From Ignavibacteriales bacterium (lineage in GTDB: Bacteria; Bacteroidota; Ignavibacteria; Ignavibacteriales; Ignavibacteriaceae): 64,000 nt of DNA. The position numbers and the translations under genes are program-made. Shown piece after piece: positions 7,336 through 24,795 of the stretch (position 1 is the stretch's first letter; each line of letters begins with the position of its first letter). The stretch spans positions 19,135 through 83,134 of the forward strand of contig JAGUYG010000022.1 in NCBI GenBank assembly GCA_020061465.1, read 5' to 3'. The notes beneath the pieces are model-generated. The model was not told the origin of the DNA and made no database searches. It worked only from the letters and a program-made list of their open reading frames with translations.

Positions 7336-7407
7336 TCGTGAAGTCTGAAATTTTATTGAATATCTAATAGTCTTAAACTTTTCCCTTTAGTAGTCAGTAA
7401 AGCATTA

Positions 7408-7616: not shown

Positions 7617-8708
7617 ATGACTAAAAAGTTTTTCGTCATTCGACTTTTAACAGTGCTGATGATTGCTCTGGTTATATCAGTCAGTACTTTTTCACAATCG
7701 CAAGCACCGGTAAACCTTGGAACGGCTGGTAATTTTGTGATTCTGGCAAAATCTGGAATCTCAACTGTTCCTTCTTCCGCAATTACCGGTGATATTGGAG
7801 TTAGTCCAATTGATCAAACTGCCATAACCGGGTTCTCTTTAATACTTGATCCTTCGGGTGTTTTTGCGACATCAACCCAAGTAACCGGAAAGATATTCGC
7901 CGCCGATTTTGCAGACCCAACTCCGTCTAATCTAACCACAGCAATTGGCGATATGGAGACTGCATATACCGATGCAGCCGGACGAACAAATCCCAATTTC
8001 ACTGAACTGGGTGCCGGAGAAATCGGTGGTTTGACTCTTGTACCCGGACTCTACAAGTGGGGTACCGATGTTTTGATATCAACGGATGTCACTCTCGATG
8101 GTGGTCCAAATGATGTCTGGATATTCCAAATTGCGGGTGGTATTACTCTGGCTAATGGTAAGAGCGTTATCCTAACCGGTGGTGCATTACCTAAGAACAT
8201 CTTTTGGCAGTGCTTCGGTATTGCATCTATTGGAACAACTGCGCACTTTGAGGGAATCATATTGTCTCAAACATCAATCACCCTTGGGACAAGCGCATCT
8301 GTGAACGGCATACTATTGGCACAGACTGCAGTTTCGTTAAATGCCAATGCCGTCACCAAGCCCACAGGAGTTACCGGAGTCGAAACAGGATTCGTACCTG
8401 AAGAGTTCGCTCTCTTGCAGAACTATCCCAATCCGTTCAATCCATCCACTAAAATTAAATACAGTCTTGGAAACGCAGGTATGGTTTCACTCAAGTTGTA
8501 TAATGTGCTTGGACGTGAAGTTGTTTTACTCGTGAACGGCTACCATGAAGCTGGAAGCTACACCGCTGAGTTCAATACCAACAAGGGAAGACTCAAACTT
8601 GTGAGCGGTGTGTACTTTTACCGCTTTGAAGTCACACCAAAGAGTGAAGGCGCTTCTGTGCCCAACAGAGCCTTTGTTTCAGTTAAGAAGCTGCTTCTTT
8701 TGAAGTAA
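7617..8708 (+). CDS. DUF3494 (ice-binding-like) beta-solenoid protein with a T9SS type-A C-terminal sorting domain
   Basis: LGTAGNFVILAKSGISTVPSSAITGDIGVSPIDQTAITGF is the DUF3494 N-terminal signature. The C-terminus, FALLQNYPNPFNPSTKIKYSL...VSLKLYNVLGREVV...SGVYFYRF, is the Por/T9SS sorting tail. The ORF is open from 7530. I prefer the ATG at 7617 (MTKKFFVIRLLTVLMIALVISVSTFSQ) because it gives a normal signal peptide. Confidence 0.85.
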   Translation: MTKKFFVIRLLTVLMIALVISVSTFSQSQAPVNLGTAGNFVILAKSGISTVPSSAITGDIGVSPIDQTAITGFSLILDPSGVFATSTQVTGKIFAADFADPTPSNLTTAIGDMETAYTDAAGRTNPNFTELGAGEIGGLTLVPGLYKWGTDVLISTDVTLDGGPNDVWIFQIAGGITLANGKSVILTGGALPKNIFWQCFGIASIGTTAHFEGIILSQTSITLGTSASVNGILLAQTAVSLNANAVTKPTGVTGVETGFVPEEFALLQNYPNPFNPSTKIKYSLGNAGMVSLKLYNVLGREVVLLVNGYHEAGSYTAEFNTNKGRLKLVSGVYFYRFEVTPKSEGASVPNRAFVSVKKLLLLK

Positions 8709-8722
8709 GAACTGATCTCATT

Positions 8723-8740
8723 CCCCCGGAAGTCCGGGGG
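8723..8740 (+). terminator. GC-rich hairpin after the DUF3494 gene
   Basis: CCCCCGG-AAGT-CCGGGGG, 15 nt after the stop codon. There is no clear U-tract. Confidence 0.45.
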
Positions 8741-8807
8741 ATTGGGGCTGTATAAAAAGTTGGTAATACTTTTATTTGCAACCAAATAAAACTGAGCGAA
8801 ACTATTT

Positions 8808-8853
8808 ACTCACCTAGCGATGTAGTTCCTTTTTCATCGCTTTGGACTATTGA
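8808..8853 (+). promoter_or_regulatory. regulon box copy D (GATGTAG subtype) upstream of the five-gene giant-protein operon
   Basis: TACTCACCTAGCGATGTAGTTCCTTTTTCATCGCTTTGGACTATTGA. Here the inverted half-sites extend to AGCGATG...CATCGCT. Confidence 0.6.
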
Positions 8854-9028
8854 ATACTATCCAATAACTACCTATATTAAATAGGATTATAACCCAACGA
8901 TTACTTGATTTTGAAAAACGACACTTGTTTTTTTTGAATTAAAAAATAACAGGCATTATACCTTAGTTATTCTGCAAGGCTATTACCATTAAAAATATAA
9001 CGATCTACCAACCAAAATATGGTGTATC

Positions 9029-12000
9029 ATGCGAAAAATTTTTCTGCTTATAATATTATTTTTCTTTACCGGGTTTTGCTTTGCTCAGGTATTAGTAATA
9101 CTTCAGCAGCCTCCTCCAAACCAGCTTCGTGCTACTGATATTTGGAATCTTACACTTACAAACACAACCCGCAATAATATTGTGGTAACAATATCCGGAA
9201 CTCTCGAAGAAGCGGGTGCTGGAATAATAGTAGATGGAACTTCAAAACCTATAAGCTTACAGCCCGGGACAAAGAGAATTACTTATGACGATGTTAAAAG
9301 CGGAAATGTAAATTTTAAATCCGGTAAGTGGAGAGAAGCATTTACACGTACCGGTAATACCCCATCAGGAGATTATACAATTTGTATTCAGGTAAAAAAT
9401 GAATCCGGCGAAGAAATTGGAAGCGACTGCATAGAACAAAGAGTTGAAATAATTTCTTCGCTTATACTAATTTCACCTACTGATGAAGAAACTATTCCAG
9501 CAGAGCAGCAGCCATCATTTACCTGGTTGACACCAATGCCGGTTCCTTCAGGACAAATAACCTACAAATTAAAAATAGTTGAGATACTTGGAAATCAATC
9601 TCCTGAAGAAGCTATGCTAAGAAACCGGGCATGGTTTGAGAAGCCGGATATCAGATCAACAATGTTTCAGTATCCTATATCGGCAAGAAAAATTGAAGCA
9701 GGAAAAAAATATGCATGGCAGATTTTTGCTATGCAGAATAATTCATCTCTGTCTTCCAGTGAAATTTGGAAATATAATACTGATACAAGCAGTAATACGT
9801 TAAAGAGTCTTACCACAACCAGTGATGATAGCAGCAGTAGTGGTAATGATAGTAGTAGCAATAGTAATCCACAACTTCCGGTATCAAGCTGCCAATCAAT
9901 AGCGCAAGCTGCAATTATTACAAACCAAATAGCTTCATCAAAATCTGCAAATGATTTTGTTCAACAATTTATCAAAGTCGGTCATTTTAATATGAAAGTG
10001 CTCACTGCATCAGGAAGCAGTTCGGCGTTAACCGGAACAGGTTCAATAGTTGTTTCCTGGCTTAAAACACCAATAGCCGTTGAATTTAAAAATATAAAAG
10101 TAAATACGGTAGATGAACTATATAACGGCGAGGTTATAACACAATTTGATCAAACACCAAGTACTTGGCCTCAACAATGGTTAATAAATGGAACCGGTAC
10201 TTTCAATTGGACAACCACAAAAGTAAAACAATTAAATAATTGGCTTCACAATACTATAAGTAATTATCCCGTTGCAAATAAACTTGTAAAAGATTTTGAC
10301 TTAAACCAGATGGTTCAGGATTATACTAATACACCCTTAAAACTCCCTTTAGGTGTTAATAATGCAGACGGCTACACAATTGCTATTTCAGAAATGAAGT
10401 TTGAGCCGACAAGTGCAAAATTAAATTGTCTCGCAATTTTTCCGGTTAATGAATATAATGACAGTGTTGGTTTTAAAGGTTCAAATATAGTTTTCTCAAC
10501 AGGAGGACCCTCATTACAATCCGCAAAACTTGGTTTAATTGACGATGTAACTTTTATTGGAAATGTACCCAATGGAGATTCCTATCATTTAGTATTTAAA
10601 AAAGAACAAGGGGCATCGGACGGTACATTTATAGAATGGGACTGTGAAGGCTTTCGTGAATTAAATATTGATCTGGATGTATTATTTCCAAGAAGCTGGT
10701 TAAAACCTGTACCCGACAATGGTACGGATAAGGTTATATGTAATATCAAAACAAATATTGTTAAGTGGGATGACTGGATGATTGAGGCGAACCTGCCCAA
10801 TAGCACAATTTCCGGTACGCAGGGAATGGAGCTCGAGGTTACCTCGTTTTATTATGACCATTCTTCGGTCAGAAATCCTGATTCACTATCATTCCCGGCA
10901 AATTATCCTGTGGGCGCTACTACCGGTTTAGATTTCACCGGTTTCTTCATTAAGAATGCTAAAATAAAATTCCCGGATAATTTCAAAACTTCTAACCAAA
11001 ATGTTACCATTAATATTGAAAAAATGATTATCAATAAACAAGGGTTAACAGGAAAAGTTACGGCAAAAGATATTATAACATTTCCAAATGGAAATGTATC
11101 CGATCTTGGTGCAAGCTTAGACACGTTAAAGCTTGAAATCATTTGCAGCTCATTGACAAATGCTTATCTGCGCGGAAAGATTGTCCTGCCGGTATCGGAA
11201 GTAAACGCAGCTAATGCACTTTTATTTAAAGCAACATTTGCTTCAAATAATGGATTTCAATTTACCATTCAACCGCAGGGACCTATAACCGCAAAATTTT
11301 TCTCTGATGCAAAGCTTGTATTAGCAAATACTTCAACTCTTAGTCTTTCAATTAATAACAGTACAAATTTTGATATTAAGCTGAACGGCGATTTTGAATG
11401 GGCTAATATAAATATCGGACCTGTTAAAAATGTAAAAATGAAAATGGGCTTTCAGAATGTGGGAATGAGCTATGACAACATCGCTAACAGTAATAATTTT
11501 ACTTTTAACAAAGGTACATGGAGTTTTGCAAGCCCGCCAAAATTCTTGGCAAATTTTCCGGTTAGTATCAAATACGTTAATTTCAATATGAAGCCGAAGC
11601 AAGGAAGTGAAGTTCTCCGAGGCGCATTATCATTTTCAGTTGTGGTTAATCTTGATGAGAAAATCGGCGGAACATCTGCTCTATCAGTAATTGGCGCTAT
11701 AGAAAAAAATCCTTCAACCGGAAAATTCACACCAACATTCGTGGGAGTTAATTTAGATACCATTAAAGTATTTGCAAACTTATCTGCAGTTAAGCTTGAT
11801 GGCAGTATTGCATTCTTTAATGGCAGCCCGGTAGAAGGGAACGGATTTAAGGGAACGATAAAGGCTACCGTGAATTCCATAAAAACAGAGATTAGTTCTA
11901 TGTTAATAATGGGGTCAACTAATTACAATAACGGAAATAATTTTTTTAGATACTGGTATGTTGATGCTAAAGTGATACTTCCAAAAACTTCCGGAATTCC

Positions 12001-13885
12001 GTTCCTTTCCGGTTTAGCTTTTTATGGTTTTGGAGTGGGAGTGTGGAAAAGAATGGATGTTGGGAACATTCCGGCGCTTAACTTATCCAGCATTGAAAAT
12101 GCAGCCCAAACTAATAACACAACATCATCCGGTACAAGTTTTACTCCTAATAAAAATATAGGACTTGGCTTAAAAGTTCTCGCAGTAATAGGCACTTACC
12201 CTGAGCCTAATGCCTTTAACAGCGATGCTACTTTAAGCGGACAGTTTACAACAACAGGCGGTCTAAATAAAATAGAATTTAATTTTGACTTCTGGTGTAT
12301 GACCGATTTAACTAAGAGAAGTGATGCCACTATTTTGGGTAATGCAAATGTACAGTATGTACCGCCGACAAAAGTATTTTCTTTAACAGCATCTGCATTA
12401 ATTGATAAAGCGCCGGTTACAACAAAAGGAATTGGAAATCCTAACGATAGAGTAAATCTTGCTTTATACATAAATGGAAAAACAAGCAAATGGTATTTTA
12501 TATGCGGCACTCCAAATCAAACTAACAAAATTAAAGTTTTAGGAATAACCGCATGGGAATATTTTTTATTAGGAAATGACATTGGTCAGTTTGTTAGAAC
12601 CGGTTTTCAGCAAACAACTATTTCAGGATTAAATAGTGTTGGAATGTCATATTCTAATAATGTTCCAACAACAGTACCTTCACAATCATCAACCGGAAAA
12701 GGTTTTGCTTTTGGAGTTGGGGTAAGTTTTAGTAATGATAAATCCAAGCATATATTATCATTGCCGCGAGGTAATGTTTATCTTAACTATGGTGCAGGCG
12801 GAGGTTTTGAAGTTAATTTATCTTTACTTCAATATCCTAATGCTACTGTATGTGGAAGCACTTCTCCTATTGGTTTTAGAAACTGGTATGCTCAGGGTGG
12901 GGTAGCTGCCTGGTTTTATGGATATGTTAAAGTAACAGTTCCTAAAAAAAGCGGGATTTGTATTATATGCTGCGGATCTTCAGGAACTTGTGATTATAAT
13001 TTTGCTTCAATCAAAACAGGTTTGTGGGTGCAAGCCGGTTTTCCGAATCCTGTATGGGTAACCGGAGAGGCGCTTGTTTCAGTTAATGTACTTGATCTTT
13101 TTGATTGGTCAGCAACAGTAGACCTTAATTACGGAACACCTTGTACGCCAACTCCTTTGCCTGATAATCAAACTTACACACAGGAAGATGCAACCCAGCA
13201 AATTGGGGATATGATAATTAGCATTGATACTCCTCCTTCAACTGAAAGATTTGATCCGGCTAAGAAAATAGGTGTTGTGTTTGGGTTTACTCCTAATGAA
13301 GTCTTTGATGTTCAAGAAGGACAGTCTGATGGTTCTATACTTAACAGAACATTTCAGGTAAAATATTTTGGAACATTAACTTCGTTAGGTCCGGCGCCAT
13401 TAAATTTACAGCCATCATCTGTAACGCAAAGTACACCACTAACCAGTCAGACATTATCAGCAAATCAAATTGCAGTTTCACATCAAAACTTTCAAACATT
13501 AACACTCTATAATCAACCTTCAAGTTCAATACATCTAAATTCCAATACAAGTAATTTGATTAATCTTGTAAGAAGCGCCGGAACAAACTCAATCGGTCAA
13601 TATGAATATTATATACAGCGAACTTTTTTATTGAACTATAGAAATCTTGAAGATACTACTCGTTATAAATTTACAGTCCGTGCAGAACTATGGGGAATAA
13701 AACCAGGCACTGCAAATGTCTGGGAAAAAGCAAAATCAAACAGCGGTAATTTTATAACTGAAACAAGAACTGCTATTTTCAGTTCAGGAATTTTGCAGCC
13801 GGTAACCATTCAACCCGCATCTTCGAACAATTACCAAAATAGATTAAGCAGTCAAAATCAACCAAGTAATAGCCAGAGAAGATAA
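9029..13885 (+). CDS. 1618-aa exported protein: signal peptide, shared N-terminal two-domain module, Ser-rich linker, ~1300 aa of uncharacterised beta-rich sequence
   Basis: Signal peptide MRKIFLLIILFFFTGFCFAQ. Module A is LQQPPPNQL...PSGDYTICIQV. Module B is FTWLTPMP...YKLKIVEILGNQSPEEAM...FQYP...GKKYAWQI. The linker is TTTSDDSSSSGNDSSSNSN. There is no T9SS tail and no recognisable catalytic motif. Confidence 0.85.
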   Translation: MRKIFLLIILFFFTGFCFAQVLVILQQPPPNQLRATDIWNLTLTNTTRNNIVVTISGTLEEAGAGIIVDGTSKPISLQPGTKRITYDDVKSGNVNFKSGKWREAFTRTGNTPSGDYTICIQVKNESGEEIGSDCIEQRVEIISSLILISPTDEETIPAEQQPSFTWLTPMPVPSGQITYKLKIVEILGNQSPEEAMLRNRAWFEKPDIRSTMFQYPISARKIEAGKKYAWQIFAMQNNSSLSSSEIWKYNTDTSSNTLKSLTTTSDDSSSSGNDSSSNSNPQLPVSSCQSIAQAAIITNQIASSKSANDFVQQFIKVGHFNMKVLTASGSSSALTGTGSIVVSWLKTPIAVEFKNIKVNTVDELYNGEVITQFDQTPSTWPQQWLINGTGTFNWTTTKVKQLNNWLHNTISNYPVANKLVKDFDLNQMVQDYTNTPLKLPLGVNNADGYTIAISEMKFEPTSAKLNCLAIFPVNEYNDSVGFKGSNIVFSTGGPSLQSAKLGLIDDVTFIGNVPNGDSYHLVFKKEQGASDGTFIEWDCEGFRELNIDLDVLFPRSWLKPVPDNGTDKVICNIKTNIVKWDDWMIEANLPNSTISGTQGMELEVTSFYYDHSSVRNPDSLSFPANYPVGATTGLDFTGFFIKNAKIKFPDNFKTSNQNVTINIEKMIINKQGLTGKVTAKDIITFPNGNVSDLGASLDTLKLEIICSSLTNAYLRGKIVLPVSEVNAANALLFKATFASNNGFQFTIQPQGPITAKFFSDAKLVLANTSTLSLSINNSTNFDIKLNGDFEWANINIGPVKNVKMKMGFQNVGMSYDNIANSNNFTFNKGTWSFASPPKFLANFPVSIKYVNFNMKPKQGSEVLRGALSFSVVVNLDEKIGGTSALSVIGAIEKNPSTGKFTPTFVGVNLDTIKVFANLSAVKLDGSIAFFNGSPVEGNGFKGTIKATVNSIKTEISSMLIMGSTNYNNGNNFFRYWYVDAKVILPKTSGIPFLSGLAFYGFGVGVWKRMDVGNIPALNLSSIENAAQTNNTTSSGTSFTPNKNIGLGLKVLAVIGTYPEPNAFNSDATLSGQFTTTGGLNKIEFNFDFWCMTDLTKRSDATILGNANVQYVPPTKVFSLTASALIDKAPVTTKGIGNPNDRVNLALYINGKTSKWYFICGTPNQTNKIKVLGITAWEYFLLGNDIGQFVRTGFQQTTISGLNSVGMSYSNNVPTTVPSQSSTGKGFAFGVGVSFSNDKSKHILSLPRGNVYLNYGAGGGFEVNLSLLQYPNATVCGSTSPIGFRNWYAQGGVAAWFYGYVKVTVPKKSGICIICCGSSGTCDYNFASIKTGLWVQAGFPNPVWVTGEALVSVNVLDLFDWSATVDLNYGTPCTPTPLPDNQTYTQEDATQQIGDMIISIDTPPSTERFDPAKKIGVVFGFTPNEVFDVQEGQSDGSILNRTFQVKYFGTLTSLGPAPLNLQPSSVTQSTPLTSQTLSANQIAVSHQNFQTLTLYNQPSSSIHLNSNTSNLINLVRSAGTNSIGQYEYYIQRTFLLNYRNLEDTTRYKFTVRAELWGIKPGTANVWEKAKSNSGNFITETRTAIFSSGILQPVTIQPASSNNYQNRLSSQNQPSNSQRR

Positions 13886-13887
13886 TT

Positions 13888-16068
13888 ATGAAATTAATAA
13901 AAATAATTATTCTGATAATTTCCATTCATATATTTGTCAATGCGCAGATTGACACAGCAATACCGGAAAAAGATAGCGTAAGCATTGATGATTTGAATGA
14001 AGGACTCAAAACAAAAATTGGAATTATTGCAAGAACATATTCAGATTCCGTTATTGTCAGGTGGGCAGTTTCCAAACCGGCGGTATGGAGTATATGTAAA
14101 GAATTTGGTTTTATTTTAGAACGCGCACCAATATTGCAAAATAATTCTTACGGTGAATTCAAATCGGTTAAAGAAGGTGCGTTTAAACCCTGGACAGATG
14201 ATCAATGGGAATCGTATTTCAATTCAAGACCGGAAAGAGTTGACGACTCAGAAATTGATTATGATGTTTTTGCATATCTGTTCGGATCATCAGATCAAGA
14301 TGTTTCCGATGTGAAAATAGAAACCTCAACTGGTAATGAGCTGCAGAATTTAAAAGATAAAAAAAGCAAATTGGATTGGCAGTTACTCTTTGCAATGTTA
14401 TCGGCAAATAGCAGCAGCAATGCAGCAGAAGGACTTGGATTAAGATACGTTGATAAAGATGTGAAGTTCGGAGAAAGATATGTATATAAAATAAATTTAG
14501 CGGGGAAATCTCCCGTTTATATTCTTGAAGAAGGGCTTATTGAAGTAAAAGTTGAGCCATATAATCCCAACTTTGCTAAACAAGATATCTCGGCTTCTGA
14601 AAATGAAGGCAGCATAGGGATAAACTGGAATGCGAATAATAAATTATCTTTTTATAAAATTGAACGCTCTGATGATAATGGCAGCACATTTAAAAAGTTA
14701 ACAAAGACTCCCTTGCTAACTATGAAAAATAAGTCCGCTGAAAATGATTCATCCGAAGGTTATCTCGACACGTTAATTGTAAATTACAAACCATATATCT
14801 ACAGAGTTTACGGCACTACTTCATTTGCAGATAATGTTTTGATAGGTGAAATAAAAGCTATGGGTAGAGACCGGACCCCTCCCGAACAGCCTTTTGTTCC
14901 CCAACCTGAACAGATAAACGACAATGAAGTAAAAATAATTTGGAAGATGAGCGATACTCCGGCAAAAGATCTGAAAGGATTCTACATAGGGCGTGATACT
15001 TCATCTTCCGGAGAATTTAAATATATAACCAAACTATTATCCCCAACGTCAAGAGAGTATATTGATAAAAATTTTTTAAGAGATGCTTCTAATTTTTATT
15101 TGGTAGAGGCAGTTGATACGGCAGGTAATATAAGCCAGTCTTATCCTGTTTATGTTGCATTAAATGATACTACTCCGCCGGTAAAACCTGAGTGGCTTAA
15201 AGGCTCAATGGATTCTGTTGGTGTAGTTACCCTAATATTAAAGCCAAATGTTGAAAAGGATTTAATGGGTTACCGGATATTAATATCCAATTCACCTGAG
15301 CATGAGTTTTCCTCTATCATAGAATCGTTCGGAAATGATTCTTTAGACTTTGCAGGTATAACCGAATTTAAAGATACAGTCACACTTGAAACTACAACTC
15401 CTTATGTGTATTACCGTGCAGCAGCTCTTGATAACCGTTACAATGAATCTGAACTATCCGGAATAATAGCTATTCGAAGACCCGATATTATAGCTCCTAT
15501 TGTTCCTGTTATAATTGATGTCTCGGTTACTGATAAATCCGTGACTCTATTTTTCGCTCCAAGCACAAGCGAGGATGTAAATTATCATGTTGCATTTCGC
15601 AGGATATTAGGGGAAGAGAAATGGGATAGTCTTTCTGCCTTGGGTTCTACCGATACTACTTTCACCGATAATAATGTTAAACCGAATATTATGTATGAAT
15701 ACTCTTTGCTTGCCGTTGACAGTTCTGGATTACGTTCCGAATTCTCATTTTCTGTTACTGCCAGACCATATTATACCGGTGTTCTTACAGCAATAAAAAA
15801 TTTAAAAATAGAATATGATGAGAAGAAAAACGGAACAATACTAAATTGGGATTATGAAAATTCGGAGGGAGTATATTTTGTAGTTTATCGAGCATTCGAA
15901 AAAACTTTACCGGGCAGATATGCAACAGTAAAGGAATCGGAATCAAGAATTTTTACGGACGAAAAATTAACATCCGGGAAAGGCAATTACAGTTACGCGG
16001 TCAAAGTTTTCGATAATTTAGGCGGCGAATCAAAAATGAGTGAAACGGTAAATATTTATGTCAAATAA
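13888..16068 (+). CDS. 726-aa exported protein with several fibronectin-type-III-like repeats
   Basis: Signal peptide MKLIKIIILIISIHIFVNAQ. Repeats begin with TPPxxP / IIAPIVP linkers followed by an Fn3-like pattern (EVKIIWKMS...GFYIGR...YLVEAVDTAGNIS; VVTLILKPN...GYRILIS...YYRAAALDNRYNES; SVTLFFAPS...YHVAFRR...YSLLAVDSSGLRS). The start codon lies 3 nt after the upstream stop. Confidence 0.8.
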   Translation: MKLIKIIILIISIHIFVNAQIDTAIPEKDSVSIDDLNEGLKTKIGIIARTYSDSVIVRWAVSKPAVWSICKEFGFILERAPILQNNSYGEFKSVKEGAFKPWTDDQWESYFNSRPERVDDSEIDYDVFAYLFGSSDQDVSDVKIETSTGNELQNLKDKKSKLDWQLLFAMLSANSSSNAAEGLGLRYVDKDVKFGERYVYKINLAGKSPVYILEEGLIEVKVEPYNPNFAKQDISASENEGSIGINWNANNKLSFYKIERSDDNGSTFKKLTKTPLLTMKNKSAENDSSEGYLDTLIVNYKPYIYRVYGTTSFADNVLIGEIKAMGRDRTPPEQPFVPQPEQINDNEVKIIWKMSDTPAKDLKGFYIGRDTSSSGEFKYITKLLSPTSREYIDKNFLRDASNFYLVEAVDTAGNISQSYPVYVALNDTTPPVKPEWLKGSMDSVGVVTLILKPNVEKDLMGYRILISNSPEHEFSSIIESFGNDSLDFAGITEFKDTVTLETTTPYVYYRAAALDNRYNESELSGIIAIRRPDIIAPIVPVIIDVSVTDKSVTLFFAPSTSEDVNYHVAFRRILGEEKWDSLSALGSTDTTFTDNNVKPNIMYEYSLLAVDSSGLRSEFSFSVTARPYYTGVLTAIKNLKIEYDEKKNGTILNWDYENSEGVYFVVYRAFEKTLPGRYATVKESESRIFTDEKLTSGKGNYSYAVKVFDNLGGESKMSETVNIYVK

Positions 16069-18916
16069 AAATAACCGATTAAGTTTTTTTGCAGAATATA
16101 AACGGTACTGCAATTTTATTATTTTGTTAATCCTTTTATACATGCAATCAACTGCTTTAGCGCAGGTAACTGTTCAGATTCAACAGCCACCTCCCTTCCA
16201 ATTCAAGCTTGAAAATATGTGGAAGGTTACTTTAATAAATCACACGACCGAAACTTACACCGTCTATTTGCACGCCTCTGCAACTGAGCTATCTCAAGGA
16301 GAAATTGTTGAGGGAACAACAGCAGTATTTTCACTGCCGCCGGGAGTAAAAGTTGTAAATACACGGGAGCTTGTGCCGATGGATATTAAAGTTATCAATG
16401 ATAAGTATGCCGATATAATAAAAAATCTTAATGCCGTTCCATCGGGTGAATATGAAATATGCGTCGCCGTAATTGATGCTGCAACCGGCGCAACCCTTGG
16501 TTACCAGTGTTTACAAACTCAATCGCAGAACATTTCAAAAATTGAACTGCTTGCACCGGAAGACAATTCCTTAATTGAAGGCGGTAAAGTTTTGACGGAA
16601 ATACAATCATCCCAAGAAGATATGCAGGAAAATATACAAATCGTTAATGGCTCTTACATAGTATTTAGCTGGCTTCCACCCCCGCCTATTATTCCGGCGC
16701 AGCAGGTAACCTATTCCATAAAGATTACGGAAATATTAGGACTGCAATCTTCTTATGACGCTCTCCAATCAAATCCGGCATTTTATAAACAAGACGATCT
16801 TTACACAACTATTTTTCAATTTCCCTCTGTTGCACGGGAGTTTTCACCCGGCAAACGTTATGCGTGGCAGGTAAGCGCTTATATAAATAAAGTACTGGTT
16901 TCCAACAGTGAAGTAAGAGATTTTTCGTTCGGAAAATATGAGGCAGCTTTAACACAAAAAGTACCCAAAAATAAAAGCGGTTCTAAAGTTGGGCTTCTTC
17001 AATCGGAATGGCTGCCCACCGGTTTAAGCGAAGGCTACAATAAATATTTTTATCCAAACAACACCGACGAGAATTCGCAAAGCGATATTGTTTTTTCAGG
17101 CTCGGCTAAATTAGAAACGCAAACTGCACACAGACAGGGATATAAATCTGAAATACCTGAAAGATTTACAAACCTGGAGCTTTATCCTGTCCTTTCTATT
17201 TTCGGAATACCTTTCTCGTCTAATGTTCTGCTTTCCACACAGCAGGAAGCTGCAAAACAGAGCTTGAACAGTTTCGGGCTTAACTTTGATTTTGAAAAAC
17301 TTAAAGGAGATTTACAGCAGAGACTTTCCGATAAAGCCAGTGAACGGATTAATTCCGAACTGGCTGAAATGAAAAAAGATCTTGAAAACAAAACCGCTTT
17401 AAAAGATAAGATTCAGCAGCTCGATGCTTTAGGAAATTTAAACACGAGTGAAATAGATTCATTAAAAAATCAATTGGCTTTACTTGAAGAAGCTACCGGG
17501 TCAATTGATGAAATGAATTCCCAAATTGAAAATCTTCAAAACCCGGAGAATTTTAAGCAGAACCTTGAAAGATTTAACCTAATATCCGGTTCCGAAAAAT
17601 TTTTAATGACTCTGAAGACTTTTGGAATAGGTACAACTTATCCTAGCTACACACCTCACACACTAAACGGTGTGCCGGTAAGCGGTTTAAACATTGAAGT
17701 GACACCTGCTTTCCTCTACCTTGCCTTCTCGGGAACTTTGAATCAAAGAGGTGTAAATAATTCCGCTTACAGACGCAATTTATTTGCCGGACGAATAGGA
17801 GCGGGTGCAAAAGAAGAGAGTCATATTCATATTACAGGCTTATATGTAAAGGATGATGAGTTCTCCATAAACACAGATACTACAAATTTAACATTAACTC
17901 CAAAAGCAAATTATTTATTCGGACTTGAGGGGAAGCTAAGATTTTTTAACAATCAATTAATTATCGAAGGTGAAACCGTTGGTTCAGTGTTGACTAGAGA
18001 TGTACGTGAAGCCGATTTGGAAAGCGACGCTATTCCGCCTTTTGTAAGAAAGCTCGTACAGCCGAAGATAAGCAGCTCTTTCGATTTTATGTATGCAGCT
18101 AAAACATCATACAACCTTGATGAGACCGGTACTAAAGTTTCTTTTGGAATAAAGATGATCGGACCCGGTTTCACTTCTTTAGGTGTCCCTAATCTTAATA
18201 CCGATTTTTTTGGTTATGAAGGAAAGATTGATCAAAAACTATTCAAAAGGAAAATATCACTCGTTACATCATTTAAATCCAACAGAGATAATCTTATTGA
18301 TTGGAAAGCTTATACAACTACTACAACTTCATTTAATGTAAACCTCGGTTTAAGATTTCCGAACCTCCCAGTATTAAATCTTACATACTCTCCTTTTTTC
18401 CAAAAAAACAACAACTTAGATACTCTTCAAAAAATAGATAGCAGAACGGCTATGTATTCTGTAATGTCTTCTTACAGCTACAAGGTTTTAGAATTTCAAA
18501 GCTCGACGAATATTGTATTCTCTCTGCAGGAAACAAAAACACTTGCACGAATAACCGACTTCAGAACCACCAGCTTTATGTTTACTCAAACGGCGTCCTT
18601 CGATCTTCCGGTTACATTTGCGGCAAGCTTAGGTATAATTCAACTAAAGCCTTACGGTGCCTATAGTAGGATAAACACTTTCGATTTCAGCGCTTCATTT
18701 CCTGTCTTTGAAATAATACAGGGCGTAATCGGGTTTAGAAACGCAATTGAAAAAGATAAAAACAAAAAATTCGGATTATACTTCGGATCATCAGTTACTT
18801 TGTTAGATAATTATGTTTTTGACTTTAGAGCAGAAAGTTCCACATACAGTGAGTGGGATTTTTTAACTGAATATTCAGATATTATTCTGAGAGCCACGCT
18901 CCAGGCTACTTGGTAA
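16058..18916 (+). CDS. 952-aa protein: signal peptide, divergent copy of modules A+B, coiled coil, predicted C-terminal outer-membrane beta-barrel
   Basis: IQQPPPFQF...PSGEYEICVAV (module A). FSWLPPPP...YSIKITEILGLQSSYDAL...FQFP...GKRYAWQV (module B). A heptad-rich stretch spans aa ~417-505. The last ~430 aa show amphipathic alternating strands and end ...ILRATLQATW, with an aromatic terminal residue typical of OMPs. It overlaps the upstream gene by 11 nt. Confidence 0.8.
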   Translation: MSNKNNRLSFFAEYKRYCNFIILLILLYMQSTALAQVTVQIQQPPPFQFKLENMWKVTLINHTTETYTVYLHASATELSQGEIVEGTTAVFSLPPGVKVVNTRELVPMDIKVINDKYADIIKNLNAVPSGEYEICVAVIDAATGATLGYQCLQTQSQNISKIELLAPEDNSLIEGGKVLTEIQSSQEDMQENIQIVNGSYIVFSWLPPPPIIPAQQVTYSIKITEILGLQSSYDALQSNPAFYKQDDLYTTIFQFPSVAREFSPGKRYAWQVSAYINKVLVSNSEVRDFSFGKYEAALTQKVPKNKSGSKVGLLQSEWLPTGLSEGYNKYFYPNNTDENSQSDIVFSGSAKLETQTAHRQGYKSEIPERFTNLELYPVLSIFGIPFSSNVLLSTQQEAAKQSLNSFGLNFDFEKLKGDLQQRLSDKASERINSELAEMKKDLENKTALKDKIQQLDALGNLNTSEIDSLKNQLALLEEATGSIDEMNSQIENLQNPENFKQNLERFNLISGSEKFLMTLKTFGIGTTYPSYTPHTLNGVPVSGLNIEVTPAFLYLAFSGTLNQRGVNNSAYRRNLFAGRIGAGAKEESHIHITGLYVKDDEFSINTDTTNLTLTPKANYLFGLEGKLRFFNNQLIIEGETVGSVLTRDVREADLESDAIPPFVRKLVQPKISSSFDFMYAAKTSYNLDETGTKVSFGIKMIGPGFTSLGVPNLNTDFFGYEGKIDQKLFKRKISLVTSFKSNRDNLIDWKAYTTTTTSFNVNLGLRFPNLPVLNLTYSPFFQKNNNLDTLQKIDSRTAMYSVMSSYSYKVLEFQSSTNIVFSLQETKTLARITDFRTTSFMFTQTASFDLPVTFAASLGIIQLKPYGAYSRINTFDFSASFPVFEIIQGVIGFRNAIEKDKNKKFGLYFGSSVTLLDNYVFDFRAESSTYSEWDFLTEYSDIILRATLQATW

Positions 18917-18948
18917 AATTTTAATTTAATATAAAAATAGGAAAAGCT

Positions 18949-20586
18949 ATGAAAAAACCAGCTTACTTTTTATCCATACTGTTATTCCTGTCATTGATAG
19001 GAATAAAATCTGTTGAAGCTCAGGTACAGGTTAAGCTGCAGCAGCCCCCGCCTAACCAGCTTCATGCAACCGATATCTGGAATCTTACACTTACTAATAC
19101 AACCGGTAAAACTTTAACGGTTATAATATCAGGAAAACTTGAGGAAGCCGGTGAGGGAATAGTAGTGGATGGAACTTCCAAGCCTTTTAGTTTGCCTCCT
19201 GGAACAAAAAGAATAACTTATGACGATGTAAAATCGGGAAGCGTAAATTTTAAATCCGGTAAGTGGAGAGAAGCATTTACCCGTACCGGCAACGCTCCTT
19301 CAGGTGATTACACAATTTGTATTTACGTAAAAAGTGAAGAAGGCGAAGAGCTTGGCAGCGACTGTATTGAGCAGAAAGTTGAAATTACCGGTGCGCCCCA
19401 ATTAGTCTTTCCCGCCGATGGTGATGAAATACTACCCGGCACATTACCAACATTTACATGGCTGCCGCCAATGCCAACCCCGCAAGGTGCGGAATATACA
19501 TTAAAAATTGTAGAGATAATCGGAAATCAATCTCCAGAAGCGGCAATGAACATGAATAAAGCTTTTTTTGAGAGAAAAGGAATTAAAACGACGATGTTTC
19601 AGTATCCGGGAAGTGAAAAGAAATTTGAGGAGGGAAGGAAATATGCATGGGTAATCAGCACCGGAGAATTAAAAAGTGAAATATTTAGTTTCAGCATGAG
19701 TTCCGCATCCTGTGGAACTATAGTAGATTCAATTAAAGTTGAGTGTATGGGGTGGGATGAAAATACAGGACTGCCGCAGTATTTGGTTACTATATTATTA
19801 ACAAATATACCCACAAGTCCTACTTATGGGTGTAATGCAACATATACTTCCATTGCAACACTACCCGCCAATACAGGAACGATTACAGGTATTAACACAA
19901 TTCCGCTAACAATAACGCCAAATAATTCTGGCTCAATCCAGTTTACATATTCTCCTCCTAACTTAAGTACCACCTCTGTAACATTTGGGGTATTTGGAAC
20001 CTGGGCTGATGATATGAACAATACAGTAAATCTCTCAACAGTTATTGATACCCTACCAAGTTGCCTGTGTAATGATTGCGATAGCGCTTCATTGTCTGCG
20101 GAACAAGTGGCTGTGTCTAATGTTTCCGGAAACCCAAACCAATACAATATTTCAGGAAGTTTGGCAATTAACGGATTGCCTGCAAATATTCAGGTGATAG
20201 AAATACAAGTTAAAAGTTTCAGTTTTACAAGTGTCCCGGTCAGTTGCAGCAATGGCATACAGCAAATTGAACATTCCGGTGTTATGATAAATCCCTCTAC
20301 AACTATCAATAGCGTAGTACCGGTTTTCCAAAATGTAATGGTGCCAAACAATTACAATGCATCAAAAGATATAAAATGGATTGTAGGTGGTTCAGGTTTA
20401 ACGCAGCCGGCTTCCATTCCCTTTAACCTTACATTAGGTGTTCCTGCACCGCTGCCAGGTCTGCCTGCAGATTGCTGTACGATGGATTATACAGTTTGCT
20501 TTAAAGTAATCGTGTATTATGGCTCATCTCCCGATGTGTGCCGCTATTGCGAATTTTACTTTTGCAAAACATTTTCTAACAATTAA
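18949..20586 (+). CDS. 545-aa exported protein: close copy of modules A+B plus a Cys-rich C-terminal region
   Basis: LQQPPPNQLHATDIWNLTLTNTT...PSGDYTICIYV and FTWLPPMP...YTLKIVEIIGNQSPEAAM...GRKYAWVI are very close to the N-terminus of 9029-13885. The tail is CCTMDYTVCFKVIVYYGSSPDVCRYCEFYFC. Confidence 0.85.
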   Translation: MKKPAYFLSILLFLSLIGIKSVEAQVQVKLQQPPPNQLHATDIWNLTLTNTTGKTLTVIISGKLEEAGEGIVVDGTSKPFSLPPGTKRITYDDVKSGSVNFKSGKWREAFTRTGNAPSGDYTICIYVKSEEGEELGSDCIEQKVEITGAPQLVFPADGDEILPGTLPTFTWLPPMPTPQGAEYTLKIVEIIGNQSPEAAMNMNKAFFERKGIKTTMFQYPGSEKKFEEGRKYAWVISTGELKSEIFSFSMSSASCGTIVDSIKVECMGWDENTGLPQYLVTILLTNIPTSPTYGCNATYTSIATLPANTGTITGINTIPLTITPNNSGSIQFTYSPPNLSTTSVTFGVFGTWADDMNNTVNLSTVIDTLPSCLCNDCDSASLSAEQVAVSNVSGNPNQYNISGSLAINGLPANIQVIEIQVKSFSFTSVPVSCSNGIQQIEHSGVMINPSTTINSVVPVFQNVMVPNNYNASKDIKWIVGGSGLTQPASIPFNLTLGVPAPLPGLPADCCTMDYTVCFKVIVYYGSSPDVCRYCEFYFCKTFSNN

Positions 20587-20602
20587 CCCAAACAGGTGAT
20601 GT

Positions 20603-23548
20603 ATGAAATCTATTAAATATAAAATCGGAATTTGGCTCACAATAATTGCTGCATTTATGTTTGTTCAGCGGGGCGTGAGCCAAACAACGGCTACCTGTCA
20701 ATTATTAGGAACACCTTCAAGTGAAGTAAGCGTTGCTTTGCCATCCGTTAATATTCTAACAGGGCTTGATTTCAATCTCGCTATTTCCGTTCCAGGCATA
20801 AATTGCGATGACTATACTGTTAAAATTGTAACTTCCGGCAATCTGCAATTATCTGCTGCTAGTTCCAGTTATCCAATTGTTTTTACTGCTACAGGTGTTA
20901 ATCAATATGAAAACGTAACTGTTTTGCCGTCGACATCTGGTTTAAATTTTGCTGTTCCATTTAAGTTTAAACCAGGTGTTACCTGTAATGGTGAGACCGG
21001 CACTTTTAATATAACAATAAATACAAGTTGTAGTGGTGAAGCCAAAGAATGTAAACTGAATGTATCTATAAAAGCTATTGCCCAAAATTACTGGGAGGTA
21101 AAAAAAGAGCATATTTGGGGAAATCTTTCAGGGGGTTCCGTTTTATGGAAAATAACGTTATACCAACTACCTCACCAGTTAGGTATCGGAGATTATAATA
21201 TATATAGCGGCACTCTTACCGATGTTTTGTCAAGTGGTCAAATTCAATCGGTATCGCCGGGTCTGGCTTCCGGCATTGGCACTTCTACTGCAATCTGGAA
21301 TACGGGTACCATATTAAGCACTGTGCCATACGTCGAATATTATGTTTATACAACAAGTTGTGATTCTGCTGGTACGGTGGTGGAGAACTGCGTGAAATAT
21401 AACTTTTGCCTGGCTAAACCTAAAAAGATTGATGATAAAGTGCCAATTGATAAGCCCGATAAAAAAGCAATGGAGGAATTGCAGCAGAAAGAGAAAAAAA
21501 TTGGACCTGTTCCGGTTTTACTCTGCTGTGCATCAATTAAGGGTGAAGAATGCGCACAGGTAACACTAACAGGTATCCCAAGTGCAAATACAAATTTTGC
21601 TAAATATCTTACTTATGGTACAAACCTTAACTATGCACAAGGTTGTGAAGGAGAATACCTAATTCAAATTTCAAACAGCGGTAATATTCCGCTTGATAAT
21701 CTCGTATTGACAGATCAAATACCTCCTGGCATCACAGTAACTAGCGTGACAGTGTATAGTTCAGGTGGGGTTAATATGGCTTATACCACAACCAATCCTA
21801 CAGGTACTGGTAATACCTTAAATTACCAGCCGTTTACTGGAATATTGATAAATAATCCGGACGTTTTTACTTTTTCAACTACATCAGGACAATTATTAGG
21901 TGGAACTATATTCATCAGAATACGTTTTACCATTAACGCAGTAGCTGGTACACCGGTAAACAATTGTGCAAACCTTACGTACGATGGCACTTACACCGGT
22001 TGGGCGAATATCTGCAATATCCCGATTCCGCCTGTACCTCCATCAGGAACCATTCAGAGTTGTGCACCATTTACGGTAGAACCACCGAAAGCCATACCTG
22101 GCTTAAAGAAGTGTATTACGAGCGGGATCCAGACTTATAACATTGGCGATTGCATACCATTCCGAATTGTAGTGAGCAATCATGGACAATCAACTCTAAA
22201 TGGTTATACGTTAAGCGATGTTTTATCCAGTCCACAATTTCTGGAAATATGCGGACCTGTTACTTATGGACACGGAGTTTCAGCATTTACACCCAATTAT
22301 ACCGGCTGTATTGATGGAAATAGTTTGTCGACCCCAATGTCTACCATTCCTCCCGGTTGGATAAATCCAATTAATACAAACGTTGGTTCTCAAAATCCAA
22401 GTTGGAACATAACAGGTATGCCTGGTGAATGCAGCCTTGACAAAGCCTATTATTTAGTAATTGAGGTTACTGCTAAAGTGAGACCTACTACTTGGGGAAA
22501 TTATACAAACACAGCGGTCCTTACCGATGGGATTACTACACTTTCAAGTGCTGCACCTTATAATATTGTAAGGTTAGGAAAACTGGATATAGATAAAAAA
22601 GTAAATAGTGGTCCGGGAACATCTTTTGGAACATTAGGTTACGTAGACCCGGGTCAGCCTTTTGCTTTTCAGCTTATAGTAACTAATAACGGAAGTGTTA
22701 GATTAAACAATATTGATGTTACTGATAATCTTCCGCCTTGTGTTACGTTTAACAATGCTTCAGGAATAGTGTATAGAAATAATGGAACAACTTCTGCTGT
22801 TGCGGTTGGTGCACCTCCGGGATTAAACTTGACACCCTCTGTCGATTTAGAACCCGGTGAATATATAGTTATTACTATAAATGTTACGCGCAATGCTAAT
22901 GACAACGGTGTTGAATGCTGCGATCCGACAGCTTTCGTTATGGGCGTAGCAGCAGACAACAATATGAATGTTTATTCAAACTCAGGAAAGGCTTGTGTCG
23001 TAAGAACGCTATGCTGCGATATGGAAAACTCTGAAATAACATTAACCGCTGCACTTATACAGGTGTTTGGTGTGCAGTATGTTAATCTAAATCTTGGAAT
23101 AACAGCAGGCAATCTTCCTATACAAGAAGTGAGTGTTTCATTGGTTGATTATCATATTGCTTACGATAATCCTAATTGTAAGCCGGCTGATATAGGTATG
23201 CTCACAGGTCATATTTCTTCTACCACCAGTTTACTAGCAGGTGGATTGTTGTTGGCTACACCAAACACACCGGTGAATAATTCTCTTACTTGGCAACCGG
23301 GAACACCTGTAGATCTGAGCGGCGGTACTACAGTTAATATTAGACTATGGAGACCATGGATATTAAATATTCCGTGTTGTAGCGGAACTATTAATTACTG
23401 TTTTAAAGTAATAATAAAAGATGTGGACTGCAGGGTTTGTGAAAAAATAGTTTGTCTTCAATCTCCATTACCAAAACCACCTAAGAAAATTAAAGAAGAC
23501 ATGAAGGAAATATTTGAAAAAAGCACTTTAGAACAAGATGAAAAGTGA
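20603..23548 (+). CDS. 981-aa exported protein with DUF11-like repeats and the same Cys-rich tail motif
   Basis: Signal peptide MKSIKYKIGIWLTIIAAFMFVQRGVSQ. DUF11-type strands: LVLTDQIPPGITVTSVTV, YTLSDVLSSPQFLEI, IDVTDNLPPCVTFNNASG. The tail CCSGTINYCFKVIIKDVDCRVCEKIVC is followed by a K/E/P-rich end. Confidence 0.8.
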   Translation: MKSIKYKIGIWLTIIAAFMFVQRGVSQTTATCQLLGTPSSEVSVALPSVNILTGLDFNLAISVPGINCDDYTVKIVTSGNLQLSAASSSYPIVFTATGVNQYENVTVLPSTSGLNFAVPFKFKPGVTCNGETGTFNITINTSCSGEAKECKLNVSIKAIAQNYWEVKKEHIWGNLSGGSVLWKITLYQLPHQLGIGDYNIYSGTLTDVLSSGQIQSVSPGLASGIGTSTAIWNTGTILSTVPYVEYYVYTTSCDSAGTVVENCVKYNFCLAKPKKIDDKVPIDKPDKKAMEELQQKEKKIGPVPVLLCCASIKGEECAQVTLTGIPSANTNFAKYLTYGTNLNYAQGCEGEYLIQISNSGNIPLDNLVLTDQIPPGITVTSVTVYSSGGVNMAYTTTNPTGTGNTLNYQPFTGILINNPDVFTFSTTSGQLLGGTIFIRIRFTINAVAGTPVNNCANLTYDGTYTGWANICNIPIPPVPPSGTIQSCAPFTVEPPKAIPGLKKCITSGIQTYNIGDCIPFRIVVSNHGQSTLNGYTLSDVLSSPQFLEICGPVTYGHGVSAFTPNYTGCIDGNSLSTPMSTIPPGWINPINTNVGSQNPSWNITGMPGECSLDKAYYLVIEVTAKVRPTTWGNYTNTAVLTDGITTLSSAAPYNIVRLGKLDIDKKVNSGPGTSFGTLGYVDPGQPFAFQLIVTNNGSVRLNNIDVTDNLPPCVTFNNASGIVYRNNGTTSAVAVGAPPGLNLTPSVDLEPGEYIVITINVTRNANDNGVECCDPTAFVMGVAADNNMNVYSNSGKACVVRTLCCDMENSEITLTAALIQVFGVQYVNLNLGITAGNLPIQEVSVSLVDYHIAYDNPNCKPADIGMLTGHISSTTSLLAGGLLLATPNTPVNNSLTWQPGTPVDLSGGTTVNIRLWRPWILNIPCCSGTINYCFKVIIKDVDCRVCEKIVCLQSPLPKPPKKIKEDMKEIFEKSTLEQDEK

Positions 23549-24099
23549 GTAATCGTTGCCAGTTCTTCTTTCTTTTACTGGCACGTTAACGAAATTCATT
23601 TCGAGCGGATTACGATGGTTGCAGGCGCTGAAGCCGCTGTTAAGCTGAAGCAATTATTGAAATGAGATCTCACCCAGGAGATACGAATCGCTTGGGTGTG
23701 CTCTGTTTATGTTGGTGTGTGTCAGCCTCGTATAAGTAACGCAGGATCTTATTTCGCACACCGCTACTGACTAATACTAGACGAGGATTTCGCTAAAACA
23801 TTAGCCGGCAGAGTACTCATTTGGTCTGGGAAAGTTCCTGAAAACTGACGCTCCAAAGACAGCGGGTACCATCGGGAAAGTACGTAGACCAACGATACTC
23901 CCCGTTTAGTAGCAAAAATATGGAAATTGCGTCGAGCGCGTAAAGAAATAAAGTGTAGTATGTCGTCTGTTTTGGAAACTTTGCTTGTATTGGTAGTTAA
24001 GGCTGCAATAAGATTAAATTACTCCAAACAGTCCTCAGCATCCGGTGCGCTTAAAACTTATTTGTAATTTTGAAATAGATGACGGGAAAATAGCTTACA

Positions 24100-24321
24100 T
24101 TGCTTGCGATTCAAATGGTATATCCACAATTTACTTTCAATGTTTATTTACAGGGAACCGCAACTGAATCAACTGAAGGAGAAATAGTAGAGGCAGCTAA
24201 CGGCGTATCAATTCAAGGTGGAGCACAAATGGAAGTTATTGCTTTGCGGTATTCGACGGTGAAAAATTGGAGTCAGATAATGGTGAGCTATCTTTATAAA
24301 TGTGAATACAAATTAAATTAA
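24100..24321 (+). pseudogene. probable relic of another module-A paralogue (no signal peptide, no QQPPP start)
   Basis: FTFNVYLQGTATESTEGEIVEAANGV aligns by eye with TYTVYLHASATELSQGEIVEGTTAV of the 952-aa protein. The fragment is only 73 aa, with stops immediately upstream. Confidence 0.45.
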
Positions 24322-24364
24322 AGAAAGTATGATAGGCGGATTACTTGACTCTCCGCTATATAAT

Positions 24365-24395
24365 AAACCTCAATTAAAGGCTGAGGTTTATTGTT
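24365..24395 (+). terminator. rho-independent-type terminator
   Basis: AAACCTCA-ATTAAAGGC-TGAGGTTT followed by ATTGTT. Confidence 0.55.
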
Positions 24396-24671
24396 AATAC
24401 TATCTATCTAAAATAAAACTCACTACTAAGATGAATACCTTTTAAAAGTTTAGGATGTGAATTAATAAGCTTCATTCATAACTTCACAAACACAGGCAAG
24501 AACGTTTTTCTCTTCACGCATAAAATTTCCTGCCAAATAATTTTGTACACAATTCCCAAAATGTTATTTACAATTTTCAAACATTACTACGTCGAAAGAA
24601 GCATTTAAAACTTGCAGCAATTAGAAAAATTTTGCGTGCGAATAATTATCAGCCAGAATAAGTGTCAAGTT

Positions 24672-24719
24672 TACTCAACCCAAAGATGTAGTTCCTTTTT
24701 CATCCTTTTGTACGATTGA
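24672..24719 (+). promoter_or_regulatory. regulon box copy E (GATGTAG subtype) upstream of response regulator 3 / PP2C phosphatase
   Basis: TACTCAACCCAAAGATGTAGTTCCTTTTTCATCCTTTTGTACGATTGA. Nearly identical to copy A. Confidence 0.6.
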
Positions 24720-24795
24720 TTTTAAAGTTCCATTAGCTGCATTTTTCCATTGGTAATAAAGCATACTTTGCTCGATCCATATAATTGTATTTGAT

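Follow-up and report, generated by a model that had tools for sequence, protein, structure and literature searches.

An uncharacterised outer-membrane barrel family and neighbouring exported proteins with a shared N-terminal two-domain module: a conserved system seen from a five-gene Ignavibacteriales operon

Five consecutive genes for large exported proteins, P1 to P5, lie at positions 9029–23548 of a 64,000-nucleotide stretch (here the window) of contig JAGUYG010000022.1 from an Ignavibacteriales bacterium (GenBank assembly GCA_020061465.1), and they raise the question of what kind of system they encode. The initial annotation, made from the sequence alone, had proposed one novel surface structure, in which a shared N-terminal module mediates docking or polymerisation. 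We found that P3 is an outer-membrane beta-barrel protein, and that barrels of its family are found, in several phyla, beside genes for proteins that begin with this two-domain module. Here we refer to the module as modAB (module A followed by module B) and to the exported proteins starting with it, P1 and P4 in the window, as cargos, whose variable part after modAB is the payload. The system is real and conserved, has not been characterised before, and is of more interest for its generality than for the five-gene operon.

The five open reading frames (ORFs) are on the + strand with intergenic gaps of 2, -11, 32 and 16 nt, as first described (Table 1). The Sec signal peptides that had been assigned to all five were also recognised here, by eye, from a K/R-containing n-region, a hydrophobic run and a small-x-small site followed by Q; no lipobox was seen in P1–P5 on the same inspection. 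In the public annotation, a protein identical to P3 starts 28 codons later (924 aa) and so loses the signal peptide, and it is the longer ORF that agrees with the family consensus. Pfam and NCBIfam searches of P1–P5 detected no type IX secretion system (T9SS) tail, usher, autotransporter or two-partner secretion domain, in agreement with the earlier remark that no T9SS tail, usher or autotransporter signature was recognisable. With all pieces and the Bacteroidota counterparts as queries, neither the barrel nor P1 nor P2 could be placed in a family of the same databases, and sequence and profile searches of the PDB, run for modAB and for the P1 and P3 families, gave nothing below E 0.3. The proposed novelty, which was to be judged by profile and structure searches, withstood them, as matches in Pfam, NCBIfam, PDB and Foldseek were generic or sub-threshold only. 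Curated links are limited to DUF928 (module B, distantly), DUF11 and an isopeptide domain (P5) and Fn3-like repeats (P2). In the literature on DUF928, Ignavibacteria outer-membrane proteins and new Bacteroidota secretion systems, we found nothing describing a barrel–modAB system.

The presence of the two-domain module in P1, P3 and P4 was borne out by alignments, and the hidden Markov model (HMM) envelopes (residues 19–251 in P1; the others in Table 1) coincide with the nucleotide ranges first given for it. The copies of P1 and P4 showed 65% identity over 237 aa (E 2e-96), with 79% identity at the DNA level over 300 nt, and those of P1 and P3 showed 32% identity over 269 aa (E 6e-39). Barrel-type and cargo-type modAB are ~32–35% identical and form two old, separate subfamilies. 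No curated family in Pfam or NCBIfam matched module A. Module B of P1 matched DUF928 (PF06051) at 21.2 bits (E 2.8e-4), under the gathering threshold of 26 bits, and this is the only recurrent curated-family signal of the module: DUF928 was matched by 3 of 67 modAB family members, up to E 1e-10, and a 695-aa protein of locus L001 scored 24.1 bits against the same threshold. DUF928 is itself uncharacterised, with one passing mention in the part of the literature consulted (PMC5587647).

A modAB profile of three sequences was searched against 1.84 billion proteins, and matched 3961 cluster representatives (at 50% identity) with E <= 1e-3, 645 of them with E <= 1e-30. Of the top 147 matches, 138 have a first module that begins no later than residue 60 (median 25), and 124 have a signal-peptide-like start. 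Their architectures are mostly AB (87), ABB (22) or AB plus barrel (20), besides a few tandem or internal copies. The C-terminal parts that follow are anything between ~0 and >1300 aa long, and RCC1 propellers, Peptidase_C25, PKD, SprB and SdrD_B are among those that could be recognised; a T9SS C-terminal domain was found in none of 67 modAB proteins. A module that heads such unrelated C-terminal parts is more in keeping with a tag for targeting or docking than with a polymer-forming structural unit. Between P1 and its orthologue in locus L003, modAB is 63% identical and the payload 32–38%. Named carriers are Caldithrix, Flaviaesturariibacter, WOR-3 and an Armatimonadota-labelled metagenome-assembled genome (MAG).

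To be counted as paired, a modAB cargo gene and a barrel had to lie within 6 kb on the same strand. The set selected by the barrel consisted of 40 GTDB loci, of which three were fragments with a modAB match only (two of them from a Chitinophagales-labelled MAG) and the rest had P3-type barrels; their labels were mostly Ignavibacteriota or Chlorobi, with a few Bacteroidetes, Chromatiales and plain "bacterium" bins. Twenty-eight of the 37 barrels were paired, and seven of the nine misses were cut by contig ends. On metagenome contigs selected by module A, 20 of 34 cargo genes were paired, with 11 of the 14 misses cut by contig ends. The two genes are adjacent in ~90% of the loci that could be evaluated, and this holds in different phyla, for unrelated payloads and for rearranged gene orders.

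The barrel loci fall into two classes, which have either a P1-like gene, a P2-like gene and the barrel, or at least one other modAB protein directly flanking the barrel. P1-P2-P3 occurs alone in, for example, L003, L022 and L036. The barrel is followed by P4-like and then P5-like genes (the latter encoding a P5_C-like protein) in L001, L011 and L059, and by a P4-like gene and the contig end in L010. The window operon combines two independently conserved sub-types, P1-P2-P3 and P3-P4-P5, and the conserved core is the pairing of a ~26-strand barrel with at least one signal-peptide protein that starts with modAB. The five genes do belong to a co-conserved system, as had been suggested, but they are not one unit.

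modAB is always kept by the cargo and is present on the barrel only in Ignavibacteriota-type loci. In the Bacteroidota loci L007 and L009, a 560-aa barrel without modAB (24% identical) is found with a P1-like gene that has the N-terminal module and a P2-like gene. In the Armatimonadota-labelled MAG (L086), a modAB-less barrel is followed by a 3400-aa giant, with one module A, seven modules B and a P1-like part, and then by a P2-like gene. In a WOR-3 MAG (L087), a 2755-aa modAB cargo with SdrD_B, SpaA and Laminin_G domains precedes a 554-aa modAB-less barrel (E 6e-137), and modAB-less barrels also adjoin modAB cargos on the metagenome contigs L068/L069. As barrels exist with and without a fused modAB and the cargo keeps its own, a physical contact between modAB and the barrel is implied by the usual fusion argument. 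Docking of one modAB copy to another, as suggested in the initial annotation, is not required and cannot be the general mechanism, because the modAB-less barrels of L068/L069, L007, L009, L087 and L086 still pair with modAB cargos.

The AlphaFold2 model of P3, made with 23 homologues (mean predicted local distance difference test score, pLDDT, 68), has two N-terminal beta-sandwiches (aa 37–157 and 200–291), then a disordered 50-aa linker and a barrel region of ~600 aa with ~26 strands in total and a C-terminal aromatic residue. When barrel regions from many loci were aligned, the first four strands were conserved in all homologues, and the helical hairpin after them varied from ~100 aa down to none, being absent in Bacteroidota. 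P3 had been described as a barrel behind a coiled coil; the C-terminal barrel was recovered in the model, but the helical element is a variable insertion after strand 4. Foldseek searches of the PDB returned 24–30-strand barrels, namely SlpA, MtrB and FimD, also LptD, with template modelling (TM) scores of 0.2–0.4. The top E-value belonged to Deinococcus SlpA (4e-8), with a TM-score of only 0.19; MtrB reached TMt 0.42, and FimD TMt 0.37–0.39 with a root-mean-square deviation above 9 Å. The model makes the fold class of P3 clear, and with such low TM-scores family membership is not claimable. A barrel profile search retrieved 111 clusters, all "hypothetical" and none with a Pfam domain. The barrel was found in the cultured Stygiobacter electus 09-Me and in uncultured Melioribacter-labelled MAGs.

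P1 consists of a signal peptide, modAB, a Ser-rich linker, an all-beta region of ~1100 aa and a low-complexity C-terminus. In the AlphaFold2 model, its central 1200 aa form ~70 long beta-strands (pLDDT 76.9, predicted TM-score 0.42). Foldseek against the PDB gave only LptD, SlpA and ApoB100, each with TM < 0.2, a PDB profile search was empty, and no known fold was assignable to this region. Readings of P1 as a TamB/AsmA or LptD protein were ruled out, as Pfam found no OstA/LptD or AsmA/DUF490 domains and the TM-scores were low. Homologues of P1 were found in Ignavibacteriota and Bacteroidota. At the loci examined, P2 always adjoins a P1-type gene and never occurs without P1; the order is P1-P2-barrel in Ignavibacteriota and barrel-P1-P2 in the Bacteroidota type. 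P2 had been considered an Fn3-like repeat protein, and probably is one, since by eye ~5 periodic Y-x-Y...D..G..S motifs can be made out and the protein partially matches the Fn3 region of CbhB (E 3.6e-9, three stretches); the Pfam model fn3 (PF00041) itself stayed at 22.4 bits, below its threshold of 25. Faint fn3 or Fn3_SaeA marks were also present in P2 orthologues.

In an uncultured Polaribacter (L008, 1788–16557), SprB-repeat genes are directly preceded by a P1-like gene that lacks modAB and by a P2-like gene. Two of the SprB-repeat genes code for proteins of ~450 aa, and a further one for a giant (>2145 aa) that has a T9SS tail. This hints that the P1-P2 pair and gliding adhesin genes may be linked as neighbours. 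A connection to SprC/SprD of gliding motility was considered and set aside, since the SprB-repeat genes of L008 are other genes, situated downstream of the P1-like and P2-like ones; we take it as a neighbourhood observation only.

P4 and P5 had been described as sharing a Cys-rich tail. Within the window their match is weak (32 aa, E 0.004), but we consider the tail real because P4-like and P5-like proteins at other loci also have the motif CC-x6-7-C-x9-13-C-x2-C-x4-5-C. The initial annotation had also recognised a DUF11-like member, and P5 indeed scored above the cut-offs for DUF11 (PF01345; three stretches, E 1.5e-14, 54.7 bits, cut-off 24.6), TIGR01451 (55.5 bits, cut-off 24) and the isopeptide-domain model TIGR04226 (46.9 bits, cut-off 30). 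Second genes without the module accompany other cargos too, such as that for the Peptidase_C13 protein in L005. The gene for this legumain-type protein (7481–9922 of L005/L006) has that of a 379-aa modAB protein on one side and the barrel gene on the other. In L001, a protein with P_proprotein and Lysyl_oxidase domains (16907–18232) follows the P5-like gene inside the barrel locus.

By analogy, the system would work most like two-partner secretion or an usher. As in two-partner secretion (type Vb; FhaB/FhaC, ShlA/ShlB), there is a big Sec-exported cargo with a conserved ~230-aa module immediately behind the signal peptide and a variable, giant C-terminus, and a dedicated outer-membrane barrel gene adjoins the cargo gene at the frequencies given above. 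Unlike there, the barrel has ~26 strands instead of 16, the tag is made of two beta-sandwiches instead of a beta-helix, the Ignavibacteriota barrel bears the cargo's own module, and a second, untagged partner (P2, P5, the C13 peptidase) is often present. P3 is no Omp85-family barrel with POTRA domains like the TpsB transporters: ShlB, POTRA and Bac_surface_Ag gave no Pfam or NCBIfam match on P3 or on its barrel-only piece. With the E cut-off relaxed to 10, Pfam still found no two-partner secretion domain (Haemagg_act, as in TpsA cargos) in the modAB pieces. The ushers of chaperone-usher systems (FimD/PapC) are, like P3, large barrels to which beta-sandwich domains are attached, and their subunits are Ig-like as well; FimD is among the best TM-scores of P3. 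However, the cargos here are huge multi-domain proteins and not ~150-aa pilins, no donor-strand signature was identified, and Usher (PF00577), PapC_N/C and the PapD chaperone had no Pfam or NCBIfam match. Autotransporters of types 5a and 5c (12-strand barrel, YadA anchor) had no Pfam match either, and the P3 barrel has ~26 strands.

The barrels of MtrB (MtrCAB) and LptD-LptE resemble P3 in their strand number of ~26 and take a partner protein in or through the lumen, but CxxCH motifs, OstA/LptD domains and sequence similarity are all absent here. A porin-cytochrome conduit (MtrCAB/Pcc) was ruled out, as P1–P5 contain no CxxCH. In the Deinococcus SlpA/OmpM tethers, too, a large barrel occurs together with a coiled coil; SlpA has an N-terminal SLH domain and stalk, whereas no SLH match was found in Pfam and the helical element here is internal and non-conserved. 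As for T9SS cargo, the superphylum is the same and so are the payload kinds (PKD, SprB, gingipain-type peptidase), but the T9SS signal is a C-terminal domain and modAB is an N-terminal module; TIGR04183 (Por_Secre_tail) and the type B C-terminal domain were absent from P1–P5 in the Pfam and NCBIfam searches.

What, then, does the system do? We see about an even chance that it exports proteins or anchors them at the surface in a two-partner-like manner, with components from uncharacterised families that are non-homologous to the known ones. P3 would be the dedicated outer-membrane partner of the Sec-exported cargos. At the mature N-terminus of P1 and P4, the two beta-sandwiches of modAB would be recognised by the barrel and dock to it, and the variable C-terminal payload would end outside or on the outer membrane. 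P2 and P5, without modAB, may be the cognate second subunits of P1 and P4, respectively, and travel with their tagged partner, and the Ignavibacteriota barrel would have acquired its diverged modAB copy perhaps as a receptor, plug or first subunit. This reading is preferred because modAB has a tag-like position, is conserved above the payload and keeps its adjacency to the barrel across phyla, and because the payload domains are of extracellular type and T9SS tails are absent in an organism that bears a T9SS. It is further supported by the best structural matches of P3, which are of translocon or sheath type (FimD usher, MtrB, LptD, SlpA). Several observations weigh against it. The barrels of L020 (Stygiobacter electus) and L028 have no cargo neighbour; the cargos L066, L067 and L082 of the module A-selected set are unpaired with no contig end to account for it, and together with L050 they are orphan cargo genes. 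Cargos exceed barrels ~6:1 among the top modAB matches, and this excess and the orphans mean that one barrel serves several cargos or that some cargos need none. In some proteins modules A and B are internal or tandem, as an ordinary Ig-like building block would show, and the low TM-scores leave the barrel type undefined. In addition, the N-terminal modAB and the hairpin of the barrel would be periplasmic by default topology, so the complex could be periplasmic or envelope-internal.

Taken as a whole, the initial picture was one of an anchor plus a fibre, in which the shared module mediates docking or polymerisation in an adhesin, sheath or S-layer-like assembly. Such a model would have a static barrel that holds P1 and P4 through modAB-modAB contacts, with P5 and P2 as stalk elements. 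It would explain why the Ignavibacteriota barrel and its neighbours both carry modAB, and it would suit the isopeptide-forming fimbrial domain model and DUF11 repeats of P5, the Fn3-like repeats of P2 and the conserved six-Cys tail that could link P4 to P5. We nevertheless hold it rather unlikely, since modAB-less barrels pair in four settings (L068/L069, Bacteroidota, WOR-3 and the Armatimonadota-labelled MAG), the barrel-type and cargo-type modules are old separate subfamilies with ~33% identity, the barrel's modAB would face the periplasm by default topology, and payloads that include enzymes (Peptidase_C25, with a C13 peptidase as neighbour) are too diverse for one fibre. That same topology, by which the N-terminal domain and the loop after strand 4 would be periplasmic, would suit a complex inside the envelope, where a porin-like or tethering barrel (SlpA/OmpM- or LptD-like) holds periplasmic partners and the sheets of P1 form an intermembrane or membrane-associated scaffold. 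The best Foldseek matches (SlpA for P3; LptD, SlpA and ApoB100 for P1) and an OmpA-family envelope protein in the candidate regulon described below point the same way. Yet TM-scores of 0.1–0.4 are generic beta matches, SLH, OstA/LptD and AsmA/TamB domains were absent from the Pfam searches, the helical insert is not conserved, and PKD, SprB, SdrD_B, Laminin_G, gingipain-type peptidase and DUF11 are typically extracellular, which makes such a complex improbable. Finally, there may be no functional system at all: modAB could be an Ig-like unit widespread in the envelope proteins of Ignavibacteriota, with gene clusters that arose as paralogues were duplicated locally. The high DNA identity of the P1 and P4 modules fits recent duplication or gene conversion, and tandem or internal copies and orphan cargo genes do exist. 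This we regard as very improbable, given the cross-phylum adjacency with unrelated payloads and rearranged order, and given the ancient divergence of barrel-type and cargo-type modules, so that local duplication does not explain the pairing.

The initial annotation had placed a regulon box upstream of the operon. The box is present, ~170 nt before the P1 start, and is one of six copies in the window, whose alignment gave the core GATGTAGTTCC-TTTTTCATCC-TTTG-AC-ATTGA. The box ends ~70–180 nt before the start codons of six + strand genes: two for LuxR-type regulators (4436 and 24796), one each for a KaiC-like ATPase (5394), an ice-binding-like protein (7530), P1 (9029) and an OmpA/TSP3 protein (32222). 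In an Rfam search of the whole window only three tRNAs were found and the box matched no RNA family, and a consensus scan of 7000–25000 for sigma-70 promoters and terminators showed no excess over shuffled sequences. The box is a candidate shared promoter or operator. The operon shares it with the genes for the KaiC-like ATPase, two of the three LuxR-type regulators, the T9SS-tailed ice-binding-like protein and the OmpA-family protein, which suggests a common regulon for envelope and surface proteins.

The ice-binding-like (DUF3494, PF11999) protein, encoded directly upstream of the operon (7530–8708), has a T9SS type A C-terminal sorting domain (32.6 bits, cut-off 23), which shows that T9SS serves other surface proteins in this organism. 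The window has three paralogous genes for response regulators of LuxR/GerE type (3569–4261, 4436–5125 and 24796–25506). The second and third, each with a box before it, are 86% identical in DNA over 300 nt and bracket the block of KaiC-like ATPase, ice-binding-like protein and operon, an arrangement that looks like a segmental duplication. The operon is flanked by a double-domain KaiC-like ATPase gene (5394–7133; NF006799, 736 bits) and a SpoIIE/PP2C phosphatase gene (25616–26815), which are unusual regulatory company for surface-protein genes. After P5, 1.25 kb (23549–24795) contain no ORF of at least 80 aa; a frame at ~24130–24207 reads FTFNVYLQGTATESTEGEIVEAANGV and weakly matches barrel-type module A (14.7 bits, P3-family HMM), perhaps as the remnant of another, second barrel gene. 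The OmpA-family protein (32222–33691), with a box upstream, has four tandem 90-nt repeats (32862–33311) that are thrombospondin type 3 repeats. Three ORFs at 27003–30059 are B12-binding radical-SAM pieces (B12-binding and Radical_SAM; B12-binding; Radical_SAM C-terminal half and DUF4070), the last two of which look like one split gene. Two tRNA-Lys(UUU) genes (1075–1147 and 38504–38576) are 97% identical and lie 37.4 kb apart.

Table 1. Features of the P1–P5 operon and its upstream box, in window coordinates.
Feature	Position (nt)	Residues (aa)	Strand	Description or basis
~54-nt box	8804-8857		+	~170 nt before P1 start; repeat search
~54-nt box, other copies	4276-4329, 5158-5211, 7404-7457, 24670-24723, 32099-32152			repeat search; six upstream regions aligned
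P1	9029..13885	1618 in total	+	exported giant
P1 module A	9083..9454	19-142	+	beta-sandwich; QQPPPxQ start; Cys pair PSGDYTIC...DC; HMM envelope, alignment
P1 module B	9455..9781	143-251	+	distantly DUF928-like; Pfam sub-threshold
P1 central all-beta region	9869..13468	281-1480	+	AlphaFold2 model
P2	13888..16068	726 in total	+	exported; ~5 Fn3-like repeats; without modAB
P3	16058..18916	952 in total	+	outer-membrane barrel protein with its own modAB
P3 modAB	16160..16930	35-291	+	barrel-type subfamily; HMM envelope, model
P3 first 4 barrel strands	17087..17287	344-410	+	model; homologue alignment
P3 helical hairpin insertion	17291..17605	412-516	+	model; homologue alignment
P3 remaining ~22 strands	17612..18910	519-951	+	model; end ...LQATW
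P4	18949..20586	545 in total	+	exported; modAB and Cys-rich C-terminal domain
P4 modAB	19018-19710	24-254	+	HMM envelope
P4 six-Cys tail	20473..20565		+	CCTMDYTVCFKVIVYYGSSPDVCRYCEFYFC
P5	20603..23548	981 in total	+	exported; 33 Cys; without modAB
P5 DUF11 repeats and isopeptide-type domain		about 344-768	+	Pfam, NCBIfam model matches only
P5 six-Cys tail	23375..23455		+	CCSGTINYCFKVIIKDVDCRVCEKIVC

Beyond the window, we would suggest, as a possibility held with some doubt, that modAB and the P3-family barrel constitute an unrecognised secretion or surface-display pathway of the FCB superphylum (Fibrobacteres, Chlorobi and Bacteroidetes) and its neighbours, with an N-terminal tag and a dedicated barrel. 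If true, such a pathway runs beside the T9SS with its C-terminal tag, is non-homologous to type V or chaperone-usher secretion, and is used by thousands of cargos, including those with giant adhesin-like and enzyme payloads. The modAB class comprises ~4000 cluster representatives at 50% identity, all unannotated, and the P3 family is a barrel family without a curated model. If the pairing is functional, it gives a prediction rule, namely a signal peptide followed by QQPPPxQ...modAB, and modAB becomes a candidate portable N-terminal tag for surface display. It would also explain by which route a large class of FCB-group surface proteins, those with no T9SS tail, reaches the outer membrane or attaches to it.

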